Made by a program: the position numbers and the translations under genes
Virus record (IMG/VR): IMGVR_UViG_3300043620_000029
Span: 1-33,026 of that record
DNA from: a virus
Lineage: Duplodnaviria > Caudoviricetes
Reading direction: 5' to 3' (one strand)
Length of the DNA stretch: 33,026 bases
Notes under the pieces: model-generated
What the model saw: the letters and a program-made list of their open reading frames with translations, nothing else
What the model was told of the DNA's origin: nothing
The model's database searches: none
In this document: one piece after another, positions 1 to 33,026 of the stretch
Layout: the number at the start of each line of letters is the position of its first letter
Position numbering within the stretch: position 1 is the first letter of the stretch

Positions 1-372
1 CTTTTCAGGTAATTTCGGGGGGGTCCCTCCCCGTTCTTCGGGGGTCCCCGAAATTCGGGGGGGGTAGGGATTATTTGACTCATCCACATCCAATCCATAT
101 GTTGTTTTCTGTTTTCCTGGGTTTCCTGTAACTTCTTTCGTTATGAAGTTTTTTTCCAACAAGGAATCAATAGAAGCTGAAACAGTGGAGTCAGAAAGCC
201 CCGTATATTTTTGAAGTTGACTTAAACTGATTTCATCTTTTTTCTTATGCCAGCCAAAGGTTTTTCTAATTATTACTAATAATACTTTTAATTCACCTTC
301 TTTTAGACGTGGAAGCCATTCTTCGAAAAGATCGTTAGGTGTTTGTGTATGGTTTGGTGGTGGTATTTTCAT
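1..372 (-). CDS. Phage replication initiator, lambda O-like N-terminal winged HTH (partial, runs off left edge)
   Basis: Not in ORF track. My translation from ATG at 372 gives MKIPPPNHTQTPNDLFEEWLPRLKEGELKVLLVIIRKTFGWHKKKDEISLSQLQKYTGLSDSTVSASIDSLLEKNFI..., open to base 1. The T-x-x-PN and IIRKTFGW..K.D.IS.SQ motifs are typical of Phage_rep_O proteins. RBS-like AAGGA upstream. Confidence 0.8.
   Translation of the reverse strand, partial: MKIPPPNHTQTPNDLFEEWLPRLKEGELKVLLVIIRKTFGWHKKKDEISLSQLQKYTGLSDSTVSASIDSLLEKNFITKEVTGNPGKQKTTYGLDVDESNNPYPPRISGTPEERGGTPPKLPEK
13..65. repeat. Three TTC(G5-8)T repeats inside the rep gene, candidate iterons/origin
   Basis: TTCG7T at 14-24, TTCG5T at 37-45, TTCG8T at 54-65. 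CCCCGAA-A-TTCGGGG palindrome at 46-60. GC-rich patch in an AT-rich genome, located just after the HTH-coding region. Confidence 0.45.
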
Positions 373-421
373 GTGTTCCTTTCCCCGGTAAGAGAAAGAT
401 GAGCGGCGAAGAACATTGTTG

Positions 422-450
422 TTGTTCTAAAATCGGATGACTGGTATAAA
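422..450 (+). promoter_or_regulatory. Sigma70/sigma66-type promoter, antisense to rep leader
   Basis: TTGTTC (422-427), 17 nt, TATAAA (445-450), with extended -10 TG at 442-443. Confidence 0.55.
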
Positions 451-456
451 CTCAGT

Positions 457-560
457 CATGATCTGCACGATCATCTTTCATTTAGTCCTTTGGCTCGGGG
501 GAGCAAAAGAACGTAATTCTTAAAGACCCCTAGACTCTCGTGGTCTAGGGGTTTTGTTTT
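457..560 (+). ncRNA. Putative ~100-nt counter-transcribed antisense RNA with three stem-loops
   Basis: Lies between the promoter at 422-450 and the terminator at 526-560. Hairpins ATGATC/GATCAT (458-474) and CTTTgGCTC-GGGG-GAGCaAAAG (488-509). No convincing ORF. Confidence 0.45.
526..560 (+). terminator. Intrinsic terminator
   Basis: Perfect 10-bp stem ACCCCTAGAC/GTCTAGGGGT (526-552), 7-nt loop, followed by TTTGTTTT. Confidence 0.7.
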
Positions 561-580
561 GTGTGCACAAATTATCAAAT

Positions 581-868
581 CTACACATTTATGTCACTGA
601 GATGCTTGTTTAAACAAATGACTTGACTATCATTGTTGCACCCTAAAAGCATAATTCCTAGAGAGGTTTTCCCAACTTCTGTAGTCATTAAGAATCCTTC
701 TTCTTCAAGCATACTAAATCGAGCATCGAACTGAGATGATGGCTTGTTCGGCTTCATTTTATTCGTCTGAAGCGTGCATAAATAGCACCAAAACGAGGCT
801 ACAGTTGTGTTTTTCTTAGCCAAGTAGTGAAAACAGTCATCGCAAATGAGCATTTTCCCCTTTATCAT
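581..868 (-). CDS. Hypothetical Cys-containing protein (95 aa)
   Basis: ORF track. Co-oriented with cro-like and rep genes. AAGGCGG RBS-like sequence upstream. CxxC near N-terminus. Confidence 0.6.
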   Translation of the reverse strand: MIKGKMLICDDCFHYLAKKNTTVASFWCYLCTLQTNKMKPNKPSSQFDARFSMLEEEGFLMTTEVGKTSLGIMLLGCNNDSQVICLNKHLSDINV

Positions 869-946
869 AGAAACCGCCTTTTAAAATAATATTACTATTT
901 TTATAACACTTTTTTAGAGAAACCTTTTTTTGGTTCCTTAAAATTC

Positions 947-975
947 AAATTAGTATTATTAATGTATTATTTCAA
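947..975 (-). promoter_or_regulatory. Putative leftward promoter containing two GTATTATT direct repeats
   Basis: Minus strand TTGAAA-N17-TAATTT. GTATTATT at 953-960 and 964-971 (11 bp apart). Confidence 0.35.
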
Positions 976-1065
976 CAGGTGGTTTTTATGTATGATGTCT
1001 TGAAAGAAATCTTTGCGGATAAGAATGTTAGACGCTCGGTTTACAGTTTTCTCTTTTTCTTCTCA

Positions 1066-1305
1066 TCATTGCTCATTATGCTCCTTGTCTTCTCCTTCTG
1101 ATTTCTTCCAGTCGATTTTAGGAATTGTTTGTTTTGAAGATTTGCTTACAGATTTGATGTATTTGTCGACAGCTTTGATAAACTGTTTGCTTGGTTTTCT
1201 ACGACCTTTGAGAATCATATTTAGGTAGTTGTGACAATAATTTATCTTTGAGGCAAAGAATATTTGAGAAATTCCGTTTTCGGCTAGGTACTCAGAAAGT
1301 TTCAT
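1066..1305 (-). CDS. Cro/XRE-like HTH transcriptional regulator
   Basis: MKLSEYLAENGISQIFFASKINYCHNYLNMILKGRRKPS is a typical Cro-like HTH pattern. First gene of the leftward early operon. Confidence 0.8.
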   Translation of the reverse strand: MKLSEYLAENGISQIFFASKINYCHNYLNMILKGRRKPSKQFIKAVDKYIKSVSKSSKQTIPKIDWKKSEGEDKEHNEQ

Positions 1306-1323
1306 TTTTATCTCACTTTTTTC

Positions 1324-1391
1324 TTGCTTAAAATATTCACTTTTTTTAATATAGTGCTATAAAAATACAACAACATACGTGTTTTTGTCAA
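1324..1391. promoter_or_regulatory. Early control region with two opposed promoters
   Basis: Plus strand TTGCTT(1324-1329)-N17-TAATAT(1347-1352). Minus strand TTGACA(1391-1386)-N18-TATTTT(1367-1362). Confidence 0.45.
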
Positions 1392-1419
1392 GAAAATGTC
1401 GAGACTTAGGAGTAAGAAA

Positions 1420-1569
1420 ATGATACCTAGCCCTTTAGATTTACACTGGGAAGAAACAGATGAGTTCATGAAGGTAAAAGAGGAACAAGATTACATCTGC
1501 GACTATATGCATCGTCTGTTAAATTTATCTCTGTTTCCAAACAGCTCTATTTACGCGGATTTTGAATGA
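1420..1569 (+). CDS. Small acidic hypothetical protein (49 aa)
   Basis: My translation MIPSPLDLHWEETDEFMKVKEEQDYICDYMHRLLNLSLFPNSSIYADFE. AGGAG RBS. Stop overlaps next ATG (ATGA). Confidence 0.6.
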   Translation: MIPSPLDLHWEETDEFMKVKEEQDYICDYMHRLLNLSLFPNSSIYADFE

Positions 1570-2123
1570 AAGAAGGTTACACAAGAATTACGAAAGTGTT
1601 GTCTCCTTTCACGGGATACAAGTCAATTCCTCAAGAAATCTTAAGAGCTAAGGCTGATATAGGCACAAGAGCTCACGAAGTTATTCGTGGTTTTTTGCTA
1701 ACTGGCGGCCTCTGGGATGTCGATGAAGACGTTAAAGGGTATGTTGAGTCAATGAAGAGGTTTTGGGGGCAAGGATACCCCATTAAAGATGTCGAAAATA
1801 GATTGTATTGTGAAGAGCATCTTTTGACGGGAGAGCCAGACCTTCTGTTTGAAGGCCCAAAAGGCCTCACGCTCTTGGATTGGAAGACATCGGTGAAGGA
1901 AAATGCTACATGGAAGTTACAAGCTTCAGGATATGCGCATCTTTGCAAGCAGAATGGACACGAAATTAAGGATATTTGGTTTATCAAACTAGATAAGCTC
2001 GGGAAGGAGCCCGAAATTTTTAAATACAAAAAAGATATTCCGCTTTTTATGAAATGTCTTGAAATTTATAAGATGTTTTTTAATAAAGAGGAGAATCTAG
2101 TTATTGAAGAGTTGATAGAATAA
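1566..2123 (+). CDS. PD-(D/E)XK exonuclease (phage recombination nuclease)
   Basis: RIT.VL, GT.AH, E, G..D, LLDWKTS and LQ.SGY motifs. Adjacent to ERF gene. Confidence 0.85.
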   Translation: MKEGYTRITKVLSPFTGYKSIPQEILRAKADIGTRAHEVIRGFLLTGGLWDVDEDVKGYVESMKRFWGQGYPIKDVENRLYCEEHLLTGEPDLLFEGPKGLTLLDWKTSVKENATWKLQASGYAHLCKQNGHEIKDIWFIKLDKLGKEPEIFKYKKDIPLFMKCLEIYKMFFNKEENLVIEELIE

Positions 2124-2156
2124 AAAAGACCAATAACTTTTTTAAGGTTATCGGTC
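2122..2156 (-). terminator. Intrinsic terminator on minus strand
   Basis: Minus strand GACCGATAAC-loop-GTTATTGGTC (one G-U pair, formed only on this strand) followed by TTTTTT. Confidence 0.6.
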
Positions 2157-2184
2157 GGGTGTCGTAGGGAAATACAACATCCTC

Positions 2185-2213
2185 ATTATAAGAAATAAAT
2201 TAAATAAAGACAA
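2185..2213 (-). promoter_or_regulatory. Near-consensus promoter, antisense to the nuclease-ERF operon
   Basis: Minus strand TTGTCT(2213-2208)-N17-TATAAT(2190-2185). Confidence 0.6.
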
Positions 2214-2221
2214 GAGGATTT

Positions 2222-2980
2222 ATGGAATCAGAAGGATTATTAGATTGTATTAAAAATGAAAAGATAACCACCAGCAAAGAGTTAGGTGAGTTATTTGGAG
2301 CACTAGCCAAGGCACAAGGTGCTATGTCTGCTGCTGCAAAGGATAGTACTAATCCATTCTTTAATAGCAAATACGCGGATTTAAGTAGCGTGTGGAATGC
2401 ATGCCGAGAAGCGACTAGCCAAAACGGGTTATGTGTTGTTCAGACGACAGGAACAGAAAATAACGAGCTATGCTTAATCACAACACTTGGTCATTCTAGC
2501 GGCCAATGGGTGCGTTCTAGTATCCCAATCAAAGTAAAGATACCTGAACCCCCAGAAGTGGATAAATATGGAAAAACAAAGAAGGTTAATGAACTTCAAT
2601 TGCTTGGTTCTTATTTCACATATTTGAGACGATACACTCTTTCTGCAATTGTTGGTGTTGCTCCTGATGAAGATGATGATGGAAATAAAGGACAGAAAAA
2701 AGAGATTTCTAATCCTATTCCTGAAGCTGGAATAGCTTATGCAGAGCCATGGAAATTAGAGGCTAAGCTTTTAAGTAAAGGTAAGATAGAAGAAGCATTA
2801 AGTGCATATCCAGATAAGCAATTGGTAGAAGAATACCTAACATTTTTGGTTAAAAACTACGAATTGACGTATAAAGAATGGATATATAAGATGATAGATA
2901 AGCCGAAAGACTTTTCTAAGAATATGCTAGAGTGGGAATTAAAAAACAGATCCGCTTTAAACTTGGAGAAAAGTGCTTAA
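2222..2980 (+). CDS. erf: ERF-family ssDNA annealing protein
   Basis: ALAKAQ, KDSTNPFFNSKYADL, TTLGHSSGQW, GSYFTYLRRY.L.AIVGVA.DEDDDGN match the ERF signature. Confidence 0.9.
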   Translation: MESEGLLDCIKNEKITTSKELGELFGALAKAQGAMSAAAKDSTNPFFNSKYADLSSVWNACREATSQNGLCVVQTTGTENNELCLITTLGHSSGQWVRSSIPIKVKIPEPPEVDKYGKTKKVNELQLLGSYFTYLRRYTLSAIVGVAPDEDDDGNKGQKKEISNPIPEAGIAYAEPWKLEAKLLSKGKIEEALSAYPDKQLVEEYLTFLVKNYELTYKEWIYKMIDKPKDFSKNMLEWELKNRSALNLEKSA

Positions 2981-3209
2981 TATGGAACAACAATCTATGG
3001 ATATCTCAGCTTTAGTAACAATACTTGGTGTATTTATTGCGAACGCCAGCATGATTATACCTCTTTTTCTCTGGGTTCGTTCAGAATCCAGAGCTGATGA
3101 GAGACATACAGATGCTAAATTAGAGTCGACAAGAGAACTTGTTAGAGCAATTTACCAAGAAAGTAAAGACTTTCATGCTCAATTGATAGAACTTAAGAAA
3201 AAACAATAA
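2973..3209 (+). CDS. Small membrane-anchored coiled-coil protein
   Basis: One N-terminal hydrophobic segment (ISALVTILGVFIANASMIIPLFLW) then a charged helical tail. Start could be 2973, 2982 or 2997. Confidence 0.7.
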   Translation: MLNMEQQSMDISALVTILGVFIANASMIIPLFLWVRSESRADERHTDAKLESTRELVRAIYQESKDFHAQLIELKKKQ

Positions 3210-3221
3210 GAAGAAAAAATC

Positions 3222-3458
3222 ATGGATTGGGCACAAGTAGGTACGATAGTCGGAATAAATATAGCGCTCATTGGAGCGCTAGCAACTTTAATAATTTGGG
3301 TTGTAAGTAAGCTTGATATCGATCTGAAGAGATTAGATACCGATTTAAAAGGATTATCAAATCGGATGGATTCGATCAATAATCGAATGGATGGACATGC
3401 ACAAAGAATAGATCAAGTTTATGGAATTATTTTAGAAATGCTTAGAGATAAAAAATAA
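3222..3458 (+). CDS. Small membrane-anchored coiled-coil protein
   Basis: MDWAQV-TM followed by heptad-like LD.DLK / NRMD repeats. Confidence 0.75.
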   Translation: MDWAQVGTIVGINIALIGALATLIIWVVSKLDIDLKRLDTDLKGLSNRMDSINNRMDGHAQRIDQVYGIILEMLRDKK

Positions 3459-3922: not shown

Positions 3923-5026
3923 TTAAAAATATTCTATAATAATAGCTCTTCCTGATTGACCGTTACCACCAGCGCCAGAATTGGCTACAGCATCAATACC
4001 GCCGCCTCCACCGCCACCACCACTAGAAAGTCCCCCACCATCGCCACCTCTACCACCAGCAGTTGCGCCGTTAGCTCCAACAGAATATCCGCCGCCTCCA
4101 CCGCCACCAGTGCCTCCAGATATATAGCCACCAGAAGATAAACCAGCATTTCCATTACTGCCTGCTATACCAGTTGATTCTAAACCGCCAGCGCCACCAG
4201 CAATTAATGTTGCTTGTGCCCCATTTAAATTAGCACCCCCATTTCCACCAACTCGCTGAGTAACAGAATTTGAACCACCACCACCACCGCCACCAGCTCC
4301 ACCAAAAGGAGGAATCGTAGGGCTAGTGTTTAAACCACCAGCTGAACTACCAACTGTTCCAACAGTAAGTGATCCATTACCTCCTTGGACAACAGAGTTA
4401 AAGTATGAAAAACCCCCAGAAACACCTGTAACAGTTGCTGTATTAGAGGTAGATCCACCAAGACCACCTGGAGCTGTTCCTGTTGAAATACTTGAAAAAG
4501 TTGTAGCTCCTCCGGGATTTCCAGGATTTCCATCAGTAGCATTTGTTGTTTGAGCAGCACCACCAGTTCCAGCTGCTCCAATGACTATATTTTCTGTAGC
4601 ACCAAAATAAATAGATGGGCTTTTAAAATATAAAAATCCACCACCTGCACCACCACCACCACCACTTGCTGCAGCTGATGTTCCTTTCCTTCCAGAACCA
4701 CCGCCTCCACCGCCTCCCCAGAGATAGCATTCGACAATTTGAGATCGTGGATCTTTTGTCCAAACGGCTGGACTGTCAGCTAATAAATATGTTGTAATTT
4801 TAATCGTAGAAGAAGTAGATAAGTTAATAGTGCCACTTCCATTTGTAATTGTAATGCTATTATTTGAAGAAGTTAAAAAACCTTTCTTTATATGCGGCAA
4901 TGCGTTACTTCCAATCAATAACTGTCCATCTAATGTAATCGTACCATTACGTTGAGTTCCATCAAAACTTACATTGTCTGCGAAAACAACAGATTCCTGT
5001 CCACCAACACTGCTAAAACCAGGCAT
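3923..5026 (-). CDS. Glycine-rich tail fibre/receptor-binding protein, paralogue 2
   Basis: WGGGGGGGSG, GGGGGAGG and terminal G.G..G..II.EYF pattern of phage Gly-rich domains. Same N-terminus as 5049-6149. Confidence 0.75.
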   Translation of the reverse strand: MPGFSSVGGQESVVFADNVSFDGTQRNGTITLDGQLLIGSNALPHIKKGFLTSSNNSITITNGSGTINLSTSSTIKITTYLLADSPAVWTKDPRSQIVECYLWGGGGGGGSGRKGTSAAASGGGGGAGGGFLYFKSPSIYFGATENIVIGAAGTGGAAQTTNATDGNPGNPGGATTFSSISTGTAPGGLGGSTSNTATVTGVSGGFSYFNSVVQGGNGSLTVGTVGSSAGGLNTSPTIPPFGGAGGGGGGGSNSVTQRVGGNGGANLNGAQATLIAGGAGGLESTGIAGSNGNAGLSSGGYISGGTGGGGGGGYSVGANGATAGGRGGDGGGLSSGGGGGGGGIDAVANSGAGGNGQSGRAIIIEYF

Positions 5027-5048
5027 ATTTAAAACCTAAATTTATCAT

Positions 5049-6149
5049 TTAAAAATATTCAACAACTATAATCATTCCATTTGCACCATTACCACCGGCG
5101 CCAGAATTGGCTACAGCATCAATACCGCCACCGCCACCGCCGCCACCGCCGCCAGGAACAATTCCATTACCGCCATTTCCTCCTGTTGTGGCACCATTAG
5201 CTCCAACAGAATATCCGCCGCCTCCACCGCCACCAGTGCCTCCAGAAAACAACCCTCCAGCTGAAAGGGGTGGATTACCATTACCACCATTAATCCCTGT
5301 GGATTCTAAACCTCCAAGGCCACCAGCAATTATTGTTGTATTACCCAAATCTGTATTGTTACCAGCATTACCACCAGCTCGTTGAGTAACAGAATTTGCG
5401 CCTCCACCGGCTCCTCCAGGAGTAGCTCCGATTTGTGCCCTTCCTGACGAACCGCCAATAGAATCTCCAACTGCACCAGCCACAATTTGTCCATTACCAC
5501 CCGTTCCACCACTAACCGCTGCAGTAATATAAGCACTCGACAAAACACCAGCACCACCAACTACAGCAGAAGTAGAACCAGCAGGACCGCCATTTCCTCC
5601 TAAAGCTTTAATAAATCCAAATGTAGTATTATTTCCTGGATTTCCTACATTACCATTAGTCGCATTGGTTGTTTGTGAAAGTCCACCAGAATTGCCAGTA
5701 CCGACAGTAAAGTTTTCCGTATTATTAAAATAAGAAGAGGGTCCTTTATAATATGCCCATCCACCACAAGCTCCACCACTTCCTCCTCCAGCTGCAGCTG
5801 ATGTTCCTTTCCTTCCAGAACCACCGCCTCCACCGCCTCCCCACGCAAAAACTTCAACAACTTTTGTTCTAGGATCTTTTGTCCATGTTCCTGGACTGTC
5901 AACTACATTGTATGTTGTAGTTTTAATTGTAGAGTTTGTAGCTATATTAATAGTTCCGCTACCATTTGTAACTGTTACACTATTATCAGAAGAAGTTAAA
6001 AATCCTTTCTTAATATGAGGAGATGCACCACTTCCGATTAACAACTGACCATCTGCTGAAACTGCACCATTACGTTGAGTTCCATCAAAGCTTACATTGT
6101 CTGCAAAAACGATAGATTCTTGTCCACCAACACTGCTAAAACCAGGCAT
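5049..6149 (-). CDS. Glycine-rich tail fibre/receptor-binding protein, paralogue 1
   Basis: Same architecture as 3923-5026 and aligned with it end to end. Confidence 0.75.
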   Translation of the reverse strand: MPGFSSVGGQESIVFADNVSFDGTQRNGAVSADGQLLIGSGASPHIKKGFLTSSDNSVTVTNGSGTINIATNSTIKTTTYNVVDSPGTWTKDPRTKVVEVFAWGGGGGGGSGRKGTSAAAGGGSGGACGGWAYYKGPSSYFNNTENFTVGTGNSGGLSQTTNATNGNVGNPGNNTTFGFIKALGGNGGPAGSTSAVVGGAGVLSSAYITAAVSGGTGGNGQIVAGAVGDSIGGSSGRAQIGATPGGAGGGANSVTQRAGGNAGNNTDLGNTTIIAGGLGGLESTGINGGNGNPPLSAGGLFSGGTGGGGGGGYSVGANGATTGGNGGNGIVPGGGGGGGGGGIDAVANSGAGGNGANGMIIVVEYF

Positions 6150-6150
6150 C

Positions 6151-6669
6151 CTATGTTACCTTTGTAAATAGAGTTTGTTCATGCCAATTAATTGTTGTGC
6201 CTGCTAATCCAGTCACTGTAACAATGATATTATTTCCAGAGACTCCAAGTACAGCATCAGCTGGTGCAAATGCAGCATCTTCAAAAGGATCTAATTCAGC
6301 TATACTAATTAAAGTTGCGGTAACTCCATCAGTTCTTGCAGCTGTAGAAGTCGTATAGCCGGCTCCTTTTCCTAAAGCAGGAGCAAAAGCTGCAATTCTC
6401 ATTGAAAAAGTAAAAACAGCAGGTGTTGATCCAAGATTAAAACAAGTAATAACTGTAGGAGTTGCATCAGTTGTAGTAATAGATTGGTTACAATCATATG
6501 AAAAGTTAATTGTAACGGTATTTCCTGATCCCGTAGTTCCAATATTACTTCCACCAAAGATATTGAGAACATCAGCGACTGGAACAGCAACACCACTATC
6601 TGTTTGAAAGCTAGTAGGAACTGTTGGCGGTAAACCGCCTGCTGAAAGACCTGCCCAAAATTGACTCAT
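6151..6669 (-). CDS. Putative virion/tail accessory protein
   Basis: T/G/A/V-rich beta-type composition. Position among fibre genes. Confidence 0.6.
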   Translation of the reverse strand: MSQFWAGLSAGGLPPTVPTSFQTDSGVAVPVADVLNIFGGSNIGTTGSGNTVTINFSYDCNQSITTTDATPTVITCFNLGSTPAVFTFSMRIAAFAPALGKGAGYTTSTAARTDGVTATLISIAELDPFEDAAFAPADAVLGVSGNNIIVTVTGLAGTTINWHEQTLFTKVT

Positions 6670-6690
6670 GATTTAAACCTTTTTTTATTA

Positions 6691-7032
6691 TTATCTATAG
6701 CCGATCATTTGAAGAAAGGTTGGAGCTTCCGCAGTCTTACCCCACAAAACTTGTCCCTTTCTAACATATAATGTTCCTGCACCATTCGAAGAATTATCGG
6801 CATGACCTGCTTGAAAATCCACAATCAATGTACCTAATGGAGGTATAAAATCATGATTGTTCACGCCATCTAGACTGATATCAATTGAAATAGTTGTGCT
6901 TCCATTATAGAGCTTAAAAATCTTCACATCATCTGAAAAACCAGATCCATTCATTGCCTGATAAGTGCCTGTTAATGATGCTGGATTGAAAACAGATTTT
7001 ATAACACATTGAACTGAGCTTAATTCAGCCAT
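6691..7032 (-). CDS. Putative virion protein (beta-sandwich-like, 113 aa)
   Basis: Start re-called at MAELSS (7032), after a GGAG RBS and just downstream of the stop of 7037-7225. Confidence 0.65.
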   Translation of the reverse strand: MAELSSVQCVIKSVFNPASLTGTYQAMNGSGFSDDVKIFKLYNGSTTISIDISLDGVNNHDFIPPLGTLIVDFQAGHADNSSNGAGTLYVRKGQVLWGKTAEAPTFLQMIGYR

Positions 7033-7036
7033 TTTT

Positions 7037-7225
7037 TTACTCCTGAGGGACTTCCTCTTCTTGTTTTTTTTCTGCTTCTTCATGTTCTTTGATGCGATTC
7101 AAAACAAAAGTTCTCAAAGCGCAGCTATAGTCATAAATTTCACCCAATGGGCAATCTACATCGCAAACGATGTGACATTTATCATAATCTTTTAATGTTA
7201 AGTGTATTTTGTTTGATATTTCCAT
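7037..7225 (-). CDS. Hypothetical protein (62 aa)
   Basis: ORF track. In operon context with GGGA RBS. Confidence 0.6.
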   Translation of the reverse strand: MEISNKIHLTLKDYDKCHIVCDVDCPLGEIYDYSCALRTFVLNRIKEHEEAEKKQEEEVPQE

Positions 7226-7245
7226 AATAATCCCGTGTTTTGATT

Positions 7246-7277
7246 AACCTTATGGTATTTTTACGTACCACAAGGTT
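7246..7277 (-). other. Intergenic stem-loop after the 778-aa fibre gene
   Basis: Minus strand AACCTTGTGGTA-N8-TACCATAAGGTT, 12-bp stem with one G-U pair. No U tract, so it may be a stabiliser or processing site. Confidence 0.5.
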
Positions 7278-7292
7278 GTTATGAGTTAACTA

Positions 7293-9770: not shown

Positions 9771-10256
9771 TTACGCCAGTTTCCTGTAGTTGTAGCCGCC
9801 GTTTTTAATCAATGTGTAAACTGAAGCACCAAAACTTGGCGTTTTTCCTTTCCACCATTTGCCCCATTTATTTTTTCCATCACTTCTGGCAGGTACGGCG
9901 CCTTGTCTAAGTAGATCAAATATTTGTGGAGGAACTTTGTCGTAAGAATAAATCGGACCGTTCTTATTTGGGTAATCACCTAAGAATCTAACCATCAATT
10001 TATTTGTTTTAGGATCATATGCAAATCCCTCTACATTTGAAGATGGTCCACTAGGTTCAATTTGTGAAGATGCTACAGCAGCTGTTGGAGGCGCTTCACC
10101 TTCTGCTCTTAACTCTTCGATCCTTGATGCAACATGCTGCATGACTTGAAAAAGCATATCCTTTAGCTCTGGAGTAAGAGGTTGTCCTCTTTGAACTATC
10201 ATTGCCATAATCTCTTTCAAGGCATCTTTAAGCTGTTGGATCTTTTCTTCGTTCAT
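9771..10256 (-). CDS. KTSC-domain protein with N-terminal helical extension
   Basis: SSNVEGFAYDP....L.VRF....G..Y.Y..VP...F..L...S.G matches the KTSC pattern, with an insertion. Confidence 0.7.
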   Translation of the reverse strand: MNEEKIQQLKDALKEIMAMIVQRGQPLTPELKDMLFQVMQHVASRIEELRAEGEAPPTAAVASSQIEPSGPSSNVEGFAYDPKTNKLMVRFLGDYPNKNGPIYSYDKVPPQIFDLLRQGAVPARSDGKNKWGKWWKGKTPSFGASVYTLIKNGGYNYRKLA

Positions 10257-13956: not shown

Positions 13957-13976
13957 ATATATCTCCTATATATATT

Positions 13977-22644: not shown

Positions 22645-22911
22645 ATGAATAATATTGAGGTTAAAGATAATGAAGAAAATTATAAAAAAGATTTAGCTCA
22701 TTATCGAAAAACGATTTGTTATATGGAGGCTAACGTGCCTATTGAGGTATTATGCCTTCCCACAGTTATCGAGAATGCCCTCATCAATGACGGCCGTCTT
22801 CGTGTCTACGATCTTCTCAATCGTGATCTTGCTAAAATCAAAGGCCTCGGAAGGAATCGTCTCCGTATCCTTACATCCAGCCTTGATGAGTTCCTCACGG
22901 TGAGCATTTAA
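22645..22911 (+). CDS. RNA polymerase alpha-CTD-like (HhH) small protein
   Basis: PIEVL.LP..IENAL...G...V.DLL..DL.KIKGLG...L..L matches the alpha-CTD pattern. AAGGA RBS. Confidence 0.65.
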   Translation: MNNIEVKDNEENYKKDLAHYRKTICYMEANVPIEVLCLPTVIENALINDGRLRVYDLLNRDLAKIKGLGRNRLRILTSSLDEFLTVSI

Positions 22912-23917: not shown

Positions 23918-25945
23918 TTAGGCTGATTGTGTTGTTAATTGATTATTTGATGCTTTAATCGCTTGAGCCATCTCCCAAGAACTTTTAAAGTTAGCAAAAT
24001 CCATGTCTTCAAGTTCAATCATCATTTTCACCAGGTTCAAGTCGGCTTCTGTGCGTTTATGTTCGGATTCTGAGTGGAGTTCATCTGTTTTAGCTAGTTT
24101 CTCTTGAGCACTTGCTAAAAGCTCTTTTTCACGAGCTAGATCGCTTCTAGACTTGGCTTGTTTAGCCATAATATCGGCTTGATCTTTCTGCTGTTGCTGT
24201 TCAGCTTGCGCTTGTTCGGCTTGTTGTTGCTGTTGTTGCATCTCTTCCATATCTTGCATTACTTGTTTCTTATTAGTAATGAAAGCAGCGCGAAGGATAG
24301 ATTTATCAGGGATTGCCATGCCAAGTTCTTTGAAGTGCAATAGCTGTTGTAACTCCATTTGCCTCTGTGTCGTTGAATAATTACCCTCTTCGACAGAGAC
24401 GGAATATTTGAGCGCATGGGATGTGAAGAATTTCTCTTCTGGTTCATGGCCGAGGATGTTGCGGATTTTACCTTTACTGAAGTTCTTGCGAATTGCTTGT
24501 AATCTAATCTTCCCGTAAAGGCGTTGAGTATAGTCAAGCTTATCGAATATCGTTTGAAGGGTCGTAAGTCCGGCCCCTTGGCGTAACATTGATAAAATTC
24601 CAGATTTATCGTCTGTCGCTGCTCCCAAAAGCTCTTCATTCACACCTGATATTTTAGTTATGTCTTCGGATAAACTAGCTGATAATTCCATCAATGACTG
24701 AGGGATTGGAGCCGCTTCTATACGTTGTATCTCTTGCGGTAAATGCCCGGATTTAAGAGGGATTAAAAATCCCTGACCGGATTGCCTAAATGCTTTTGGA
24801 TCTGTAACCGAATCAATTGGGTAGATCCATCCTGAATTGATTTGAGATTCCAAAATATCAAGCTCGATCACTTTACGACGATTATATAGATATTGAGCAT
24901 CTCTTAGGTTTCGTACAATCCCTTGCTGTCTCCATGCATAGGATTGAATATCCGGCTCATGGTAGCAAAGGGTGGGGACAAATGGATATGGATCTATCTT
25001 AAGAAGATTCTGACCGTCATAGAGAACTTTATCCCCTATTTTAATGGCAAGTTTAACGGTTGGCACTTGAACTTCTTTAACCATTAGCCAAGGCTGTTGT
25101 GCTAACACTCTTTGCATCATATCCGGTCCGTCTTCTTCATCGTCATCCCACTCAACAGCTTCACCAGATTTTGGATCCAATATGATCTTGGAAGTGCGTG
25201 TTGTTCTGTAATGGAACTCGTCATATGCAAATAGCTGATTGGTGTCTAGATTCAATAGCTCTGCTTGTAGAGGGAATCTACCATCTTTGAGACCAGATGG
25301 TCGCATCTTATCAATCTCTTTAGCATGGCCAGGTAAAAGAGCTTTAGCAGCAGTCTTCGTTACCCACCTTCTACGCCAAATAAAAGAGCAGTCAGTAAGA
25401 TCCTGCTTCCTGTAGTAAGGATCGATAAGATAGTTATTATAAGAAACTTGATCAGTGAAAAGATCGCCAGAAATAGGATCAAGAGTATAATCGGGATAAA
25501 GATGTAATAGATTGCTACCCACATCAACAGCCCCTTCAAAAGACTGGGATAAGTATTCTTGGAATCCATCTCTCTCTTCACTCCATTTTAATACTTTGTT
25601 GTAATCATCAGATAAGCTGTCATCTTGACCATTAGGTAAAGTGACAGTTGATTTTCTGTTCTTTCTTTGATAACCGCAGATCATGTTGACATGACGACGA
25701 ATCAGGTTAAAAAAGAACCGACGAGACTGTGTGTACTGTTGATCACCATAGATCATAGACCATAAGGTTTGATCACCAACCTTAAACCGCTTGTCAATAG
25801 CTCCTTGCTGCCAATATGCTGCATTTGCTGGGTAGCTAGATTGATAGTAATGATCCATCATCTGCTTGATATTCTTAGCGTTAACATCGCTAGCATCAAT
25901 GTAACCTAAGCCAGATCCAGATCCTTCCGAGTCGTATGAGCCCAT
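23918..25945 (-). CDS. Portal protein, P22-like
   Basis: 675 aa. FNLIRR.VN.I.GYQR.NR, YPFVP, GIVRNLRDAQ..YN.R, ISGVNEELLG...SG and a Q-rich C-terminal barrel helix. Confidence 0.9.
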   Translation of the reverse strand: MGSYDSEGSGSGLGYIDASDVNAKNIKQMMDHYYQSSYPANAAYWQQGAIDKRFKVGDQTLWSMIYGDQQYTQSRRFFFNLIRRHVNMICGYQRKNRKSTVTLPNGQDDSLSDDYNKVLKWSEERDGFQEYLSQSFEGAVDVGSNLLHLYPDYTLDPISGDLFTDQVSYNNYLIDPYYRKQDLTDCSFIWRRRWVTKTAAKALLPGHAKEIDKMRPSGLKDGRFPLQAELLNLDTNQLFAYDEFHYRTTRTSKIILDPKSGEAVEWDDDEEDGPDMMQRVLAQQPWLMVKEVQVPTVKLAIKIGDKVLYDGQNLLKIDPYPFVPTLCYHEPDIQSYAWRQQGIVRNLRDAQYLYNRRKVIELDILESQINSGWIYPIDSVTDPKAFRQSGQGFLIPLKSGHLPQEIQRIEAAPIPQSLMELSASLSEDITKISGVNEELLGAATDDKSGILSMLRQGAGLTTLQTIFDKLDYTQRLYGKIRLQAIRKNFSKGKIRNILGHEPEEKFFTSHALKYSVSVEEGNYSTTQRQMELQQLLHFKELGMAIPDKSILRAAFITNKKQVMQDMEEMQQQQQQAEQAQAEQQQQKDQADIMAKQAKSRSDLAREKELLASAQEKLAKTDELHSESEHKRTEADLNLVKMMIELEDMDFANFKSSWEMAQAIKASNNQLTTQSA

Positions 25946-26351: not shown

Positions 26352-26379
26352 TATATATAATACATATATAACATATATA
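26352..26379. repeat. Three YATATA hexamers at 11-bp spacing
   Basis: TATATA 26352, CATATA 26363, TATATA 26374. Same motif and phase as the arrays around parA. Confidence 0.5.
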
Positions 26380-28275: not shown

Positions 28276-28542
28276 GTGCAAAAGCGCGTTGTAAAAAGGT
28301 CATCTATAAAAACAGCGTTTGGTAGAGCTGTTAGAAATTTGCGGATAGAACAAGATCTCTCGCAAGAGACGTTGGCCGAACGTGCAAATCTTCACACAAA
28401 CTATATTGGTTCAGTAGAACGAGGAGAACGAAATATCACTCTAGAAAATATATGTAAAATCGCCAGAGGTTTAAAATCGCATCCAAGTGACTTATTTAAC
28501 CGCATTAACAACTCGTTGTTCTTCCCCAAGAACAGGATTTAA
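28276..28542 (+). CDS. XRE-family regulator resembling R-M controller (C) proteins
   Basis: FG..VR.LR....LSQE.LAE.A.LH..YIG.VERGERNITL.NI.KIA..L. AGAT-TAT-ATCT palindrome at 28226-28236. Confidence 0.85.
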   Translation: MQKRVVKRSSIKTAFGRAVRNLRIEQDLSQETLAERANLHTNYIGSVERGERNITLENICKIARGLKSHPSDLFNRINNSLFFPKNRI

Positions 28543-28782: not shown

Positions 28783-29065
28783 TACTTTGCTCCATTCGTT
28801 TCCATAATTTTGGCCACTGCATCCTGACAGCAGCTATTTTACCAGAATGCGATTCTGCCATTTTCGAGATAAGATATACAGCTCTTATTAATCTAACAGT
28901 TGCCGCATCTTCTGCTGTTTCTTTTTTTTCAAATATTTCACTCTCTTTATCAATAGAGTAATAAAGCTCGAATATAGGAATAATGTCGCTTAAGAATTTT
29001 TCTTGTTGATTGAGATCCCAAATCTCCAAAACCTCATTTATTTCTAATTGGATATCCTTTGACAT
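28775..29065 (-). CDS. Hypothetical protein (96 aa)
   Basis: ORF track. TAATG coupling to the groES-like gene. Confidence 0.65.
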   Translation of the reverse strand: MSKDIQLEINEVLEIWDLNQQEKFLSDIIPIFELYYSIDKESEIFEKKETAEDAATVRLIRAVYLISKMAESHSGKIAAVRMQWPKLWKRMEQSND

Positions 29066-29352
29066 TACCCCTCTGTCACTATCGCTAAAATATCTTTTTC
29101 AACAATCAACCTATGCGGTTCATCTTCTGTACCACCTCTGATAGATATACCTGAATAAGGAGATATGAGAACAATCCCATTCACAGATATAGGAAATTCA
29201 CATTGATCACCAATAGCCAAGACAGTTGCATCCACAGGTTCATCAGGAGCGTTTTTATTGATTGGTATTATAAGGGCGCCAACTGTTTTCCCTTCTTCTT
29301 TTTCTTTTTTAAATTTAACGATTAAGTTTCTTCCAACTGGTTTAAGGGCCAT
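29065..29352 (-). CDS. groES: GroES/Cpn10-like co-chaperonin
   Basis: LKPVG..LIVK, KT.G.LIIP (mobile loop), TVLAIG, YSG and EKDILAIV. 95 aa. Confidence 0.85.
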   Translation of the reverse strand: MALKPVGRNLIVKFKKEKEEGKTVGALIIPINKNAPDEPVDATVLAIGDQCEFPISVNGIVLISPYSGISIRGGTEDEPHRLIVEKDILAIVTEG

Positions 29353-29355
29353 TTT

Positions 29356-29592
29356 TTAATTATCCTCATCTAAAATTGTTTGATATCTTATCAAGCATTC
29401 TTCTTTGAAAATCTTAATTCCCTGCAATAAATGTTTTTTTGATACAGCTGACGAGGCAAGATATGTAGAAAATGTCATCATCAATACATCTAAAGCGCAA
29501 TAAGTTTTAATATTTTCATCGTCTAATAAATCACATATTTTAATGGAAATTTCTTCGATTTCTTTCCTGTTTAAATCCCTCAATTTATTCAT
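29356..29592 (-). CDS. Small helical hypothetical protein (78 aa)
   Basis: Start re-called at MNKLRDL after AAGGA RBS. Aligns with 31090-31341. Confidence 0.65.
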   Translation of the reverse strand: MNKLRDLNRKEIEEISIKICDLLDDENIKTYCALDVLMMTFSTYLASSAVSKKHLLQGIKIFKEECLIRYQTILDEDN

Positions 29593-29764
29593 TTTTCCTT
29601 TCCTTTTTTTCTTTTTGCATATCTTTGTAAGCAAATATTATCCCTGCTCGATATTCATCAGGTAACATGCATATTTCGTAAATTAATAGCTGTTCGTCTT
29701 CTGATCTATCCTTCAACATCTCCATTGCTTGTTCTATTATAGATAAGTAAGATTCAGAGGACAT
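29585..29764 (-). CDS. Hypothetical protein (59 aa)
   Basis: My translation MSSESYLSIIEQAMEMLKDRSEDEQLLIYEICMLPDEYRAGIIFAYKDMQKEKKERKNE. Coupled to both neighbours. Confidence 0.6.
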   Translation of the reverse strand: MSSESYLSIIEQAMEMLKDRSEDEQLLIYEICMLPDEYRAGIIFAYKDMQKEKKERKNE

Positions 29765-29958
29765 TATCCAACGCTTTTATAATCTGTTTGATAAAACCCT
29801 GTTCCTTTGAAATGTAGGGCCGCATTTCCGCTAATCATCTTTTCCATATCCTTGTCTGAATTACACGCTAAACATGATACACAAGGCTTCTCACTCATCT
29901 TGTGAAAGACAGCTAAGGTAAACTTACAATTAGGACATCTATAGTCATATGTGGGCAT
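29764..29958 (-). CDS. FmdB-family zinc-ribbon protein
   Basis: MPTYDYRC..C...H.MS....C..C....K.IS....FKGTGFY.TDY signature. Confidence 0.9.
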   Translation of the reverse strand: MPTYDYRCPNCKFTLAVFHKMSEKPCVSCLACNSDKDMEKMISGNAALHFKGTGFYQTDYKSVG

Positions 29959-30044
29959 GGTAATCTCTCCTTAATACAATCCATAAACGGGTTATTGCTT
30001 TTCTTCTCTTCCTGATAAGGGAAGGGTCTAACTTCAGAGTTCTT

Positions 30045-30281
30045 CTAATTGTCTTCATCTAACTTTGCCTCGATTGCTTCCATTATCCATTGAGTTCTGT
30101 TCATCCATTCTTTTTTATTCAGTCTATCTTGTATCCTTTCCAGACAGCTATTTGGAACACGTAAGAGTATATTTGTAAAATCAGGTTTTTTCTTAATATC
30201 CTCTTTTACATGACCTCCCCCATCGATGAACGCTTCCTTTTTCCGCTCATCATCTCTCGGTATACTTCTCGATATCGGCAT
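30045..30281 (-). CDS. ParG/ParB-like ribbon-helix-helix centromere-binding protein
   Basis: AFIDGG N-terminal arm then ILLRVP..L..I.......NRTQWI.EAI. Directly downstream of parA. Confidence 0.7.
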   Translation of the reverse strand: MPISRSIPRDDERKKEAFIDGGGHVKEDIKKKPDFTNILLRVPNSCLERIQDRLNKKEWMNRTQWIMEAIEAKLDEDN

Positions 30282-30350
30282 ATGGAAAGCCTATGTTTAA
30301 TGTATAAGTGTTATATATAATGTATATGCTAAGTATATGTCAAACATATA
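30279..30350. repeat. Seven hexamers (consensus YATATR) at 11-bp period, candidate centromere/operator
   Basis: CATATG 30279, CCTATG 30290, TGTATA 30301, TATATA 30312, TATATG 30323, TATATG 30334, CATATA 30345. Confidence 0.7.
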
Positions 30351-30993
30351 TCGCATCGTAAAGGTCTTGTATTTCTTTGCATGCCTTTTCATCTTTAATC
30401 GCTATCTCATGAACACCCAAACCATCTGCACATGCATTTGCAAACGACTTTCTTGTCTTAATACAAATCGGAAGTGTGTGTAGAGAGTTTGTTTCTTTCA
30501 ATACTGTGAGAGCTTCTTCATTATCCTTACCCTGATGGTCAGCTTGGTTTAAGAATGCGTAGAAAGACGCATTGAAGGCAGAACATTCTTCAATGAGTCT
30601 CTTAACAGGTCCTAAAGTCCACATATCAATGGATCTGGGTTTGAATGGAAAGAGTATCTTATCCGAGCAACAGATGGCTGCTCGTTGTGATGTGGTATCT
30701 CTACCACCTGTGTCGATTATGATATCGTCATAATCATTCTTCATCTTAATGATATTTGAGTAGAGAGCCTTTCCTGTTAGACAGACCGTTACGAATACAG
30801 CATTATTAGATGTTGGTGATTTAAGACCAAGCCCCCGATGATCTCTTTGCAAAGACCATTCGTAAGAGCTTTGCTGTTCATCAGCATCAACTAGTAAGAC
30901 TTTCTTGCCGTTTGCCGATCTCATTTGGCAAAGGTTCGTAGCAATCGTAGTTTTTCCACTACCGCCTTTTATACCACCTATCGTTAGAATCAT
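30340..30993 (-). CDS. parA: Short Walker-type partition ATPase (type Ib ParA/ParF-like)
   Basis: KGGSGKTT, LLVDADEQ and IIIDT motifs. 217 aa with no N-terminal HTH. Confidence 0.92.
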   Translation of the reverse strand: MILTIGGIKGGSGKTTIATNLCQMRSANGKKVLLVDADEQQSSYEWSLQRDHRGLGLKSPTSNNAVFVTVCLTGKALYSNIIKMKNDYDDIIIDTGGRDTTSQRAAICCSDKILFPFKPRSIDMWTLGPVKRLIEECSAFNASFYAFLNQADHQGKDNEEALTVLKETNSLHTLPICIKTRKSFANACADGLGVHEIAIKDEKACKEIQDLYDAIYV

Positions 30994-31062
30994 ATATACC
31001 CCATATGTTTTGTATATGCGATGTACATGGATATCATATATGGGACATATGCGCTATATATA
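30991..31062. repeat. Seven hexamers (consensus YATATR) at 11-bp period upstream of parA
   Basis: CATATA 30991, CATATG 31002, TATATG 31013, TACATG 31024, CATATA 31035, CATATG 31046, TATATA 31057. Confidence 0.75.
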
Positions 31063-31089
31063 TATTAATCAGAGATATATGGATTGTTT

Positions 31090-31341: not shown

Positions 31342-31362
31342 TTTTCCCCTATGTCTGGAGTC

Positions 31363-31395
31363 TATGTCCTAAGTCAGAATGTTTATGTCCTAAGT
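31363..31395. repeat. 12-bp intergenic direct repeat
   Basis: TATGTCCTAAGT at 31363-31374 and 31384-31395 (21 bp apart). Confidence 0.6.
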
Positions 31396-31402
31396 AAGTA
31401 AG

Positions 31403-31669
31403 TCACGGGATTAAATCATCGGGGGTTTCTGTAGGACGATCAGCTTTCAAATTCTTTAATCTTTCTTTTCGCTTTTCTATGAATTTTTCTTTCATTTTAT
31501 CTAAAGTGGAACAAAAAAAGCCTTCACTATATCCCTTCATTTCCATTGTTCCGGTCAAACAGGCTGTTAGAAACGACAAAATTTCATTTTCGGAATAACC
31601 ATTTTCAATACAACAACCATCAAGGGCTTTAAATAATTTGTATGCGGAATCAGTTCTTTCTTCACTCAT
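31403..31669 (-). CDS. Small helical hypothetical protein
   Basis: Start re-called at MSEERT, overlapping the upstream stop. Confidence 0.6.
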   Translation of the reverse strand: MSEERTDSAYKLFKALDGCCIENGYSENEILSFLTACLTGTMEMKGYSEGFFCSTLDKMKEKFIEKRKERLKNLKADRPTETPDDLIP

Positions 31670-31856
31670 TTTCACCAACGTCTGATAATGTCTCTAATGT
31701 TGTGTTGTTTCTTGGAAAAAGTTCCCTCATAAGCATGTTTAGGGCGTATTCGTCATTTTTCAAATTTTCATCCTGTTCTAGACTAGGTGTGAAGGCTTCT
31801 AAAGATTTGTCATTTAAACATGGCCAACATACCCATTCCATTAAGTCTTTCCCCAA
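31662..31856 (-). CDS. Hypothetical protein (64 aa)
   Basis: ORF track. Fills operon gap. CxxC. Confidence 0.45.
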   Translation of the reverse strand: MGKDLMEWVCWPCLNDKSLEAFTPSLEQDENLKNDEYALNMLMRELFPRNNTTLETLSDVGENE

Positions 31857-32107
31857 TAAACTACATCATCCAAAGGAACTTTTTCTATTCTATCCCACCA
31901 GTAAGATGGGTTCACTTTAATATATTGGCATAAAGGATAGCACTTGTCTTGACAAAAGTATGCCTTTTTCTCATTTCCATTTTCTAAACGGACTTTGTAG
32001 ATAGCCTGATCTTTTTCTGGTAATTCTTTCTTAGCATCACGCCATTCCTTTACATCAAGATTCTCTCCTTCATCAAAGAGATCCATCACTTGAAATCGTT
32101 TAAACAT
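31841..32107 (-). CDS. DUF551-like phage protein
   Basis: EW...K.ELP...V.YW pattern. Confidence 0.6.
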   Translation of the reverse strand: MFKRFQVMDLFDEGENLDVKEWRDAKKELPEKDQAIYKVRLENGNEKKAYFCQDKCYPLCQYIKVNPSYWWDRIEKVPLDDVVYWGKT

Positions 32108-32264
32108 TCAGTTCCTTAATCAATTGATCTTCCGACACCACACATTGATCTTGCCAGTCTTCTACTTTAGAAAAACAGGAAAAACAAATCTCTTGATTTT
32201 GATACAATTCTCTAGGTTCTTCTTTTATGATAGCGCTGCATTTTATACAAACAATTATAGACAT
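32100..32264 (-). CDS. Small Zn-finger protein (54 aa)
   Basis: My translation MSIIVCIKCSAIIKEEPRELYQNQEICFSCFSKVEDWQDQCVVSEDQLIKELNV. GGTG RBS. Confidence 0.55.
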   Translation of the reverse strand: MSIIVCIKCSAIIKEEPRELYQNQEICFSCFSKVEDWQDQCVVSEDQLIKELNV

Positions 32265-32367
32265 TATTCACCATGTATAAAAAGGATATGAGCAACTTTG
32301 ATTCCATGCATGCATATCATGCAATTACTCACATCCTCGACACGCTTACCCTATGTAAGATGCCTTA

Positions 32368-32547
32368 TTAATTTCCATGAATTTTTTTAAGAATGTTCTC
32401 TATTCTTTCAGCAGAAGTGCTTATACTAGAATTGAGGATTTCTATTTTAGAGATTAGCTTGTTGGCTTTCTGATTAATCGCCATGATTATCCAAAAAAAT
32501 AGTAGAAAATTCACAAGGCAGATTATATATAGTTGATTCCAGTCCAT
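32368..32547 (-). CDS. Small membrane-anchored coiled-coil protein (59 aa)
   Basis: My translation MDWNQLYIICLVNFLLFFWIIMAINQKANKLISKIEILNSSISTSAERIENILKKIHGN. AAGGA RBS. MDWxQ start shared with 3222-3458. Confidence 0.65.
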   Translation of the reverse strand: MDWNQLYIICLVNFLLFFWIIMAINQKANKLISKIEILNSSISTSAERIENILKKIHGN

Positions 32548-32630
32548 TTTTTTCCTTATTTTTTATTCCTAATCCCCAAAAAATATTGGAGGCCATTCGG
32601 TAATAATTACTATTGGTGGGATTTCATTCA

Positions 32631-32834
32631 TCATTTTTCTTTAACAGTAGCAAGTTCAGCTGGCATAATGTTTTTCATACATAAAACTGTTTTTATTACT
32701 TTAATCTCAGACTTAACTTCATTCAATTCTTTGCTGATTTCAGTGATGTTTCCATTTAAAAAATAAAAAGCAATTCCAACGACAATTATCGTGTGTAAGT
32801 CAAAACTGCGAATAAAATCATATATGTCTTTCAT
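32631..32834 (-). CDS. Small membrane-anchored coiled-coil protein (67 aa)
   Basis: TM segment TIIVVGIAFYFL then heptads ITEISKELNEVKSEIKVIKTVL. AAGGAG RBS. Confidence 0.7.
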   Translation of the reverse strand: MKDIYDFIRSFDLHTIIVVGIAFYFLNGNITEISKELNEVKSEIKVIKTVLCMKNIMPAELATVKEK

Positions 32835-32859
32835 TTTCTCTCCTTTTTCGTTTGAAGAA

Positions 32860-32888
32860 AGTTTAACAAAAGTAGAACTTTAAGTCAA
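32860..32888 (-). promoter_or_regulatory. Promoter with palindromic spacer, copy 2
   Basis: TTGACT-N17-TAAACT. AAAAGT-AGA-ACTTTA at 32868-32882. The -35 overlaps the upstream stop codon. Confidence 0.6.
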
Positions 32889-33025
32889 TAATATCCTCCT
32901 GATCCACCGCCTAAAAATCCTATACCATCATCCCCATATACTTTTCTTTTTAATTGGTCTATCGATAAGTTCTCATCTGGATGACTGAATTCTCCAGTGG
33001 GAAATGCAGAGTAAATAGCATAGCG
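32885..33025 (-). CDS. terL: Terminase large subunit, C-terminal end (partial)
   Basis: My translation RYAIYSAFPTGEFSHPDENLSIDQLKRKVYGDDGIGFLGGGSGGYY*. RYA fits the tail of the DH..DA.RYA nuclease motif, but only 46 aa are visible. Confidence 0.5.
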   Translation of the reverse strand, partial: RYAIYSAFPTGEFSHPDENLSIDQLKRKVYGDDGIGFLGGGSGGYY

Positions 33026-33026
33026 A

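Follow-up and report, generated by a model that had tools for sequence, protein, structure and literature searches.

Can a tailed double-stranded DNA (dsDNA) phage live as a plasmid in a strictly intracellular bacterium? The question is raised by the IMG/VR virus record IMGVR_UViG_3300043620_000029, a stretch of 33,026 nucleotides (the window, by which we mean this whole stretch). An earlier note, made from the letters alone, had read it as a temperate element kept as a plasmid in an environmental chlamydia. Several separate markers make it highly probable that the window comes from a tailed dsDNA phage whose host belongs to Chlamydiota. The reading we favor, with moderate confidence, is an intact podovirus of chlamydiae that persists as a partitioned circle whose dimers are resolved by host XerC/D. 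The phage and its host are well supported, and we infer the plasmid state from a ParA cassette and its repeat arrays.

A podovirus family with chlamydial genes

What kind of virus is this? The window carries the following virion genes, aa denoting amino acids.

23918..25945, minus strand: P22-like portal (PF16510, E 2.6e-67)
21900..22631, minus strand: scaffold-like coiled-coil protein, labeled by position (14/14 complete relatives)
18918..19874, minus strand: major capsid protein (MCP), N4-gp56 family (TIGR04387, 86.8 bits against a cut-off of 60; phrog_1357)
17891..18907, minus strand: conserved virion protein after the MCP, decoration-like by position (14/14 complete relatives, median 64%; weak phrog_584)
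16325..17407, minus strand: podoviral head-tail adaptor with an inserted beta domain (model pLDDT 73.6, Foldseek)
12869..16334, minus strand: tail accessory genes and a nozzle-like 785-aa protein (PF21882, phrog_3287)
9771..12866, minus strand: four conserved genes at the ejection/pilot position, one with a KTSC domain (PF13619; conserved in the clade, function by position)
3923..9629, minus strand: Gly-rich tail proteins and a repeat fiber protein (PF21722, phrog_863, repeats)
32885..33025, minus strand: C-terminus of a PBSX-type terminase large subunit (67% to TerL of the relative G409; the remainder lies in 4,669 unseen bases)

The HK97-lineage MCP, the portal and the terminase large subunit, present here by its C-terminus, are markers of Caudoviricetes. 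The terminase end (32885-33025) had escaped the earlier note, as had a dif-like site (31678-31705) described below; TerL of G409 passes TIGR01547. The HK97-lineage assignment of the MCP rests on profiles, since its fold model failed (pLDDT 38), and comparison with PDB gave weak capsid matches. Adaptor and nozzle point to a podovirus: the top Foldseek matches of the adaptor model are podovirus portal-tail chains of VP1, SU10, KHP30 and GP4, and tape-measure and tail-tube profiles gave weak partial matches only. Virion open reading frame (ORF) lengths come close to the median found in 14 complete relatives, which makes the module look intact. The portal, MCP and adaptor named in the earlier note are confirmed. 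Its scaffold is a label by position, its nozzle one by position and phrog_3287 (E 2.5e-22; no PDB sequence match), and its pilot and fiber proteins are positional or compositional calls only.

The window belongs to a large uncultured podovirus family. A portal search of IMG/VR returned 146 relatives among 164 candidate stretches, and 80 of the 146 were kept for locus analysis. Complete relative records measure 35-41 kb, with direct terminal repeats in 7/25. In a fast portal tree the window falls within a clade of 22 rows (support 100), where it forms a ParA-positive subclade with G409 (portal identity 92%) and L324. Portals of known phages reach at most 25% identity among the 30 matches listed, and the MCP found no match in 50,697 phage records. 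The tyrosine-recombinase profile PF00589 occurs in 1/16 complete records found by portal and in 2/17 found by ParA. In relatives, insertions interrupt the capsid gene, and their positions in it vary (L018, L020, L037, L039, L042, L044, L046, L066, L069, L075, L077; G004, G005). This suggests that an MCP of high conservation has been entered by mobile introns or homing endonucleases.

Which host does the family infect? Genome bins were of little use: 31/32 GTDB relatives lie on contigs of at most 39 kb, scattered over many phyla including archaea, and we therefore did not use the bins of metagenome-assembled genomes (MAGs) as host evidence. The single long GTDB contig (L091, Actinomycetota by title) was set aside as a likely chimera, its G+C content falling from ~70% to 35-42% at the junction. 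The relative sits at the end of this contig (L091:3000-21956), and the secreted-type genes there look Babeliae-like. The earlier note had proposed searching chlamydial genomes with the portal. Distant homologs were found in 6/400 of them (one further chlamydial genome, G010, was not scored in protein searches): four on phage-sized contigs, one as a remnant beside host genes (G091) and one integrated (G289).

Host evidence came instead from genes carried by the phages, two of which lie side by side in the window.

20110..20784, plus strand: HTH_17-PTS EIIA fusion (chlamydial ortholog matches, tree)
20804..21604, minus strand: catalytically dead Pgp7/8-derived tyrosine-recombinase homolog, lacking HxxR and the C-terminal His/Tyr

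The helix-turn-helix (HTH)-EIIA protein matches 197/200 Chlamydiota genomes, nearly always in single copy (best 57%), and 16/151 genomes of a control phylum (best 37%), in a search that covered Chlamydiota and this one control phylum. A careful tree of 30 rows, drawn from 16/30 chlamydial and 7/15 control loci, places the window copy within the chlamydial group (100/100), in a nine-row group with two chlamydial loci (96/96). Another phage locus (L262) carries the gene at the equivalent position; single-protein scans of IMG/VR with HTH-EIIA found nothing. On this evidence the gene appears to have been captured from a chlamydial host.

The neighboring protein has 33 database matches including itself, and all 16 aligned homologs end before the catalytic C-terminus. 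A profile of these homologs, trained on a set that included the intact enzyme of the complete relative G425, matches 79/300 chlamydial genomes, and in a tree the window protein is nested among dead chlamydial copies. This dead, C-terminally truncated Pgp7/8 offshoot (L176-L198) is widespread in environmental chlamydial genomes. The intact Pgp7/8 of G425 is 38% identical to the C. trachomatis plasmid proteins, and its plasmid matches are mostly from Chlamydia (112/156 records); it branches outside the chlamydial copies, weakly (85, one outgroup). By their sequences both passenger genes, HTH-EIIA and the Pgp7/8-like one, are of chlamydial ancestry. The earlier note had taken both as chlamydial signs. 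The first is nested among chlamydial orthologs as expected, and the second proved to be a dead offshoot of the lineage, not a working recombinase.

A third marker comes from relatives. A double-HTH gene, which we take to be Euo-like, is present in five of them (G407, G408, G419 and G421, and G589, a distant one). It matches 119/120 chlamydial genomes and 0/5 controls; the phage genes (L174:9290-9772; L418:5166-5561) are homologs of a single-copy chlamydial regulator, at 43% to one chlamydial copy. Euo is described as phylum-specific (preprint 10.64898/2026.08.22.746413). With HTH-EIIA, the Pgp7/8 lineage and the dif motif described below, these genes uphold the earlier assignment of a tailed dsDNA phage to Chlamydiota.

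Two further observations concern the relatives. The complete close relative G413 has a gene with a U-box, a eukaryote-like domain (L145:16193-17203), and a Tad2-like anti-defense domain occurs in G423 (L162:5574-5993) and G002.

A circular genome with partition and replication genes

Is the genome circular? We found a 13,850-bp contig in run X1 whose bases 8671-13850 align to window positions 27847-33026 and whose bases 1-4001 align to window positions 1-4001. The window ends are thus bridged by 4,669 unseen bases, giving a circle of 37,695 bp of which the window is the major part. Host flanks are absent, which settles a check that the earlier note had proposed. A separate 37,736-bp contig encodes proteins identical to those of the window and agrees with this size, and a contig from run X2 has 4,674 bases ahead of window position 11. 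Run X2 also shows, in a contig over the iteron-like region (window 1-70), a 24-base gap, possibly a repeat-number variant. Judging by the layout of G409, the unseen part would complete rep and add genes for a RusA-like and a ParB-like protein, along with terS and terL. The earlier statement that no intact integrase is visible holds for the window, given the missing catalytic residues at 20804-21604, with 4,669 bp unseen.

The window carries a partition cassette and a repressor candidate.

30340..30993, minus strand: short Walker-type ParA, type Ib size (NF041546, E 2.7e-38, below cut-off; phrog_164)
30045..30281, minus strand: small ribbon-helix-helix (RHH)-like ParA partner (NF041551, weak, E 0.003)
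30312..30350, no strand: 11-bp-phased YATATR array between parA and the partner gene, parS-like by motif phasing
30991..31062, no strand: 11-bp-phased YATATR array upstream of parA, parS/operator-like by motif phasing
26352..26379 and 13956-13983, no strand: remote phased arrays of the same motif
28276..28542, plus strand: Xre-family HTH protein, repressor candidate (PF01381; in G409 and L324, 0/14 complete relatives)

The type Ib cassette with phased repeats announced by the earlier note is real: ParA, an RHH-like partner (by weak profile matches only) and arrays flanking parA. The partner gene lies downstream of parA in many relatives. There are 11 YATATR matches in 90 bp, against at most six in 200 shuffles, and runs of at least three occur in 7/12 ParA-positive and 0/25 ParA-negative sequences, mostly adjoining parA. 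Remote arrays are also found in G586, G587 and G593. The features of a phage-plasmid are thus present in predicted form: a partition ATPase, its partner and putative centromere-like sites. The closest relative of the window has a RelE/RelB pair near parA.

Among the best 120 homologs of ParA, 35 lie on contigs of 34-41 kb and none on longer ones; of 61 ParA loci in IMG/VR, 44 include a virion gene or the terminase type of the superfamily, in an analysis that also took in 16 of 80 metagenome loci. We rejected ParA as a marker of Chlamydiota: it occurs in 5/300 chlamydial genomes at no more than 52% identity, and contigs of phage size carry its closest homologs. No chlamydial record appears among the 30 of 797 plasmid matches listed.

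At the window's start lie the replication genes and their regulators.

1..372, minus strand: N-terminal part of a lambda O-like replication initiator, cut by the window edge (PF04492, E 2.8e-13; TIGR01610 at cut-off)
373..580, no strand: structured rep leader, with a plus-strand promoter-like pair at 422-450 and an intrinsic terminator at 523-565
581..868, minus strand: 95-aa gene between the cro-like gene and rep, at the lambda cII position (69% to G409; label by position)
1066..1305, minus strand: Cro-like HTH regulator, divergent from the recombination genes (PF01381; its cluster is common to many relatives)

Iteron-like TTCGGGGG units lie inside the rep gene at 14, 37 and 54, and the 95-aa gene had no family match in profile scans. 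On the plus strand of the leader, the promoter-like pair TTGTTC-17-TATAAA (found by reading, below the threshold of the promoter scan) and a hairpin with a T-run, the terminator, predict an antisense RNA of ~110 nt. The leader folds with a z of -4.0, and one segment has two alternative partners, a local one and the ribosome-binding site. G409 retains the terminator hairpin and the promoter-like pair, with compensatory changes in the stem, despite a different rep gene. Antisense control of rep, proposed earlier, fits as a structure made of terminator, promoter-like pair and switchable leader, and the antisense RNA is a prediction. Its position resembles that of lambda OOP, so the leader element is not plasmid-specific. 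An Rfam scan of the window gave 0 matches, and no RNA run appears among the sequencing runs listed as containing the window.

The dif-like site and the competing readings

How would such a circle be kept monomeric, and could it also integrate? Both questions turn on one site.

31678..31705, plus strand: chlamydial-type dif-like Xer site, ACGTCTGATAA TGTCTC TAATGTTGTGT, overlapping short ORFs

We call the site dif because of its two arms, its 6-bp spacer and its single copy per chlamydial genome. A pattern drawn from the sites in the window and its relatives matches 182/201 chlamydial genomes, mostly once, against four matches for the reversed control. The chance figure for a pattern written post hoc from the window site is not independent, and the fair tests are two others. 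A search with the left junction of the G289 prophage as query recovered the site at window position 31678 and in many relatives, and a mismatch scan found the motif (at most one mismatch) in 16/36 phage sequences against 0/40 shuffles (4/40 at two mismatches). The motif is also present in L324, and in none of 86 genomes from the phylum of a Burkholderiales MAG that served as control. Predicted dif sites have been reported in 14/14 Chlamydiae (PMC3025954). A search of two Rhabdochlamydia plasmids found no dif-like site. Among IMG/VR loci with the motif, 22/79 carry virion genes of the family within 6 kb. A 41-kb provirus record, L522 (G774), has the motif and related exonuclease/annealing genes without a portal match, and is possibly another dif-associated phage type.

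We propose the following for a chlamydial podovirus living as a partitioned circle. The O-like initiator would start replication at an origin within the gene that encodes it, and an antisense RNA acting on the switchable leader would keep the initiator in check. The RHH-like protein would bind the 11-bp arrays while ParA segregates the circles, and host XerC/D acting at the phage dif would turn dimers into monomers. In relatives without dif, serine resolvases or Pgp7/8 could do the same: the 14 complete close relatives have dif in six (one at two mismatches), a serine recombinase in three and Pgp7/8 in one, and no two of these co-occur. After induction, concatemers would serve the PBSX-type terminase as substrate for filling podovirus particles. 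Host transcription may be tuned by the captured HTH-EIIA and, in relatives, by Euo-like genes.

Several findings weigh against this proposal. For the plasmid state, none of the 14 complete close relatives has ParA, and one may therefore not take the whole family to live as plasmids; the leader element was found in G409 and in no other fetched locus. A circular assembly is not by itself a plasmid sign, since it also arises from packaged or replicating DNA, and runs X1 and X2 are soil metagenomes that may be the source samples of the window. About 1.3 kb of the 4,669-bp gap is unexplained by the G409 layout and leaves room for a small integrase. For dimer resolution, no such system was seen in 4/14 complete close relatives, and the mutual exclusivity is weak (hand-computed p ~0.07, kinship ignored). 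The distant relative in G289 sits integrated at a chromosomal dif with no integrase found. For the host, all eight close GTDB relatives are short contigs in unrelated, non-chlamydial bins, and the six portal-bearing chlamydial genomes all hold distant clades and no close relative. The dif motif also occurs in 17/81 genomes of the Babelota-group phylum (that of the Babeliales MAG G004), and so narrows the host without fixing it. Restricted to the ParA-positive subclade, 'kept as a plasmid' remains the best reading of the sequences and probably holds there.

The strongest rival is a chlamydial phage that integrates at the chromosomal dif through host XerC/D, in the manner of integrative mobile elements that exploit Xer (IMEXs), or that switches between integrated and plasmid states, with ParA serving the free phase only. 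We consider it possible but doubtful. Its main support is the G289 prophage, a member of the same superfamily (C1:41995-77722, L121-L123) lying among housekeeping genes in a 137-kb chlamydial contig. This prophage is bounded by a dif-like 17-bp direct repeat at 41,995 and 77,706, 35.7 kb apart, its left junction is the only dif-pattern match of that genome, and no homolog of phage recombinases was found in it. Its terminase is in two pieces. The arms of the site point the same way. In the window the left arm equals the consensus and the right arm has one change, a combination shared by six relatives (G409, G418, G420, G591, G592, G594), and known IMEX sites (attP of TLC, dif of the gonococcal genetic island) have a divergent XerD arm (PMC5357621). 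Given the phage dif site and the G289 prophage, the absence of an integrase does not exclude XerCD integration, and the earlier equation of no integrase with no integration fails. However, the G289 phage is distant (portal 29%) and has no ParA, and integration at dif is seen there and not in the window or its clade. The window's site matches the chlamydial type. The 6-bp spacer of the window is not among the 150 chlamydial dif matches listed, 49 more lying beyond the listing. The phage contigs in G002 and G256 stand alone, the spacer of the latter differing from the other dif of its genome, and an integrated copy of intact size was met only once in 400 chlamydial genomes.

A lytic or chronic chlamydial phage, its circle an assembly effect and its parA, dif and arrays serving concatemer handling or being recent passengers, is unlikely. 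It would agree with the lack of a clear CI-type repressor common to the clade, with the complete close relatives that have neither ParA nor dif nor a recombinase, and with the presence of relatives in random bins, as expected of free virions. Against it stand an intact ParA cassette, matched arrays kept across distant lineages, the toxin-antitoxin pair beside the cassette of the closest relative, and a dif arm conserved in 16/36 phage sequences.

Least probable, and in our view very unlikely, is another intracellular bacterium of protists as host, such as Babelota, with chlamydial genes picked up in a shared amoeba: the motif counts in that phylum, one distant relative binned with Babeliales and a ParA without chlamydial preference speak for it, but three separate chlamydia-type genes run across the close clade (HTH-EIIA, searched without Babelota, Pgp7/8 and Euo-like), a search with the Euo-like gene gave no match in the single Babeliales genome tried, and the Babeliales-binned phage belongs to another portal clade and has no good dif-motif match.

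Known elements and the remaining genes

How does a partitioned chlamydial podovirus compare with known elements? The phage-plasmids P1 and N15 likewise combine a tailed-phage module with ParA-type partition, dispersed centromere-like sites and a multimer-resolution site and, like the window, show no integrase. The present phage differs from them in being a 37.7-kb podovirus with a lambda O-like initiator and a short ParA with an RHH-like partner, in having a host-type dif and no Cre or protelomerase, and in its intracellular host. IMEXs (the phages CTX, VGJ and TLC and the gonococcal genetic island) share with it a dif-like site with an intact XerC-side and an altered XerD-side arm, the lack of an integrase of their own and, in one relative, integration at dif. 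The IMEX phage examples are filamentous or satellite phages (PMC5357621), whereas the window comes from a tailed dsDNA phage that also has partition genes. Chlamydiamicrovirus (Microviridae) infects the same host phylum, but comprises small lytic single-stranded DNA (ssDNA) phages of Chlamydiaceae (PMC5010888), the kind to which the chlamydial phages in the literature consulted belong. The present phage, with its portal, terminase, N4-gp56-type capsid and 37.7-kb genome, has neither the small ssDNA genome nor the jelly-roll capsid of that group.

Chlamydial plasmids (pgp5/parA, pgp7/8 and 'phage group' genes) have genes of the Pgp7/8 lineage in common with the window, and one chlamydial MAG contig (L257) places a window-like ParA beside intact Pgp7/8. 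No chlamydial plasmid matched the portal, and the phage genes published from such plasmids, terminase, tail tip L and Gp33 (PMC7846284), are unlike the podoviral set of the window. The P22-like portal podoviruses Ralstonia GP4, Erwinia PEp14 and Pseudomonas Skulduggery share the portal family and the adaptor fold, at portal identities of at most 25% and with genomes of 41-66 kb among the 30 matches listed. A literature search, with most subscription papers outside it, found no description of a tailed phage family of Chlamydiota. Published accounts mention unclassified viruses predicted to infect Chlamydiales (PMC12644861) and phage genes on chlamydial plasmids and islands (PMC7846284, PMC5010888), call phages of amoeba-resisting chlamydiae little known (PMC5010888) and infer a phage donor for pgp7/8 (PMC7846284). 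Phage-plasmids and IMEXs are known kinds; the new elements are the host phylum, the captured regulators and the occurrence of this combination in a tailed phage.

We tentatively extend the picture to a widespread podovirus family of Chlamydiota, living as ParA plasmids or at dif through XerC/D, whose captured phylum-specific regulators (HTH-EIIA, Euo-like) would hold the host in its replicating state and which would be the source of plasmid pgp7/8. A common tailed family is a possible route for DNA between strictly intracellular bacteria and a candidate for the inferred donor of pgp7/8. The captured regulators suggest that phages tamper with the chlamydial developmental cycle and, together with the dif arm, offer a simple host marker that could serve for many viral contigs as yet unassigned. 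It also becomes possible to test how a tailed particle gets to a bacterium that lives within a eukaryotic cell.

The remaining genes of the window are as follows.

1566..2980, plus strand: exonuclease and ERF-family ssDNA annealing protein (phrog_298, PF04404)
2973..3458, plus strand: two small N-terminally hydrophobic proteins (sequence, family cluster), with a third at 32631-32834
22645..22911, plus strand: RNA polymerase alpha-CTD-like gene, antisense within the head module (48/80 loci; Atlas lead PF03118, 0.86-0.89)
29065..29958, minus strand: GroES-like and FmdB-like zinc-ribbon accessory genes (PF00166, PF09723)

A tRNA-Asn call at 25835-25920 was rejected, as the conserved portal ORF contains it and its fold has a z of only -1.1, and an Atlas look-up for 22750-23433 returned nothing useful. 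The small hydrophobic proteins may act in the membrane or in lysis. No endolysin family turned up when Pfam was run on cluster representatives and on singletons of at least 95 aa from the close clade, boundary-crossing ORFs excluded, which is a hint only. Together with the small hydrophobic proteins recurring in the close clade, this would fit a host with little peptidoglycan. The RNA polymerase alpha-CTD-like gene is kept in all 14 complete close relatives.

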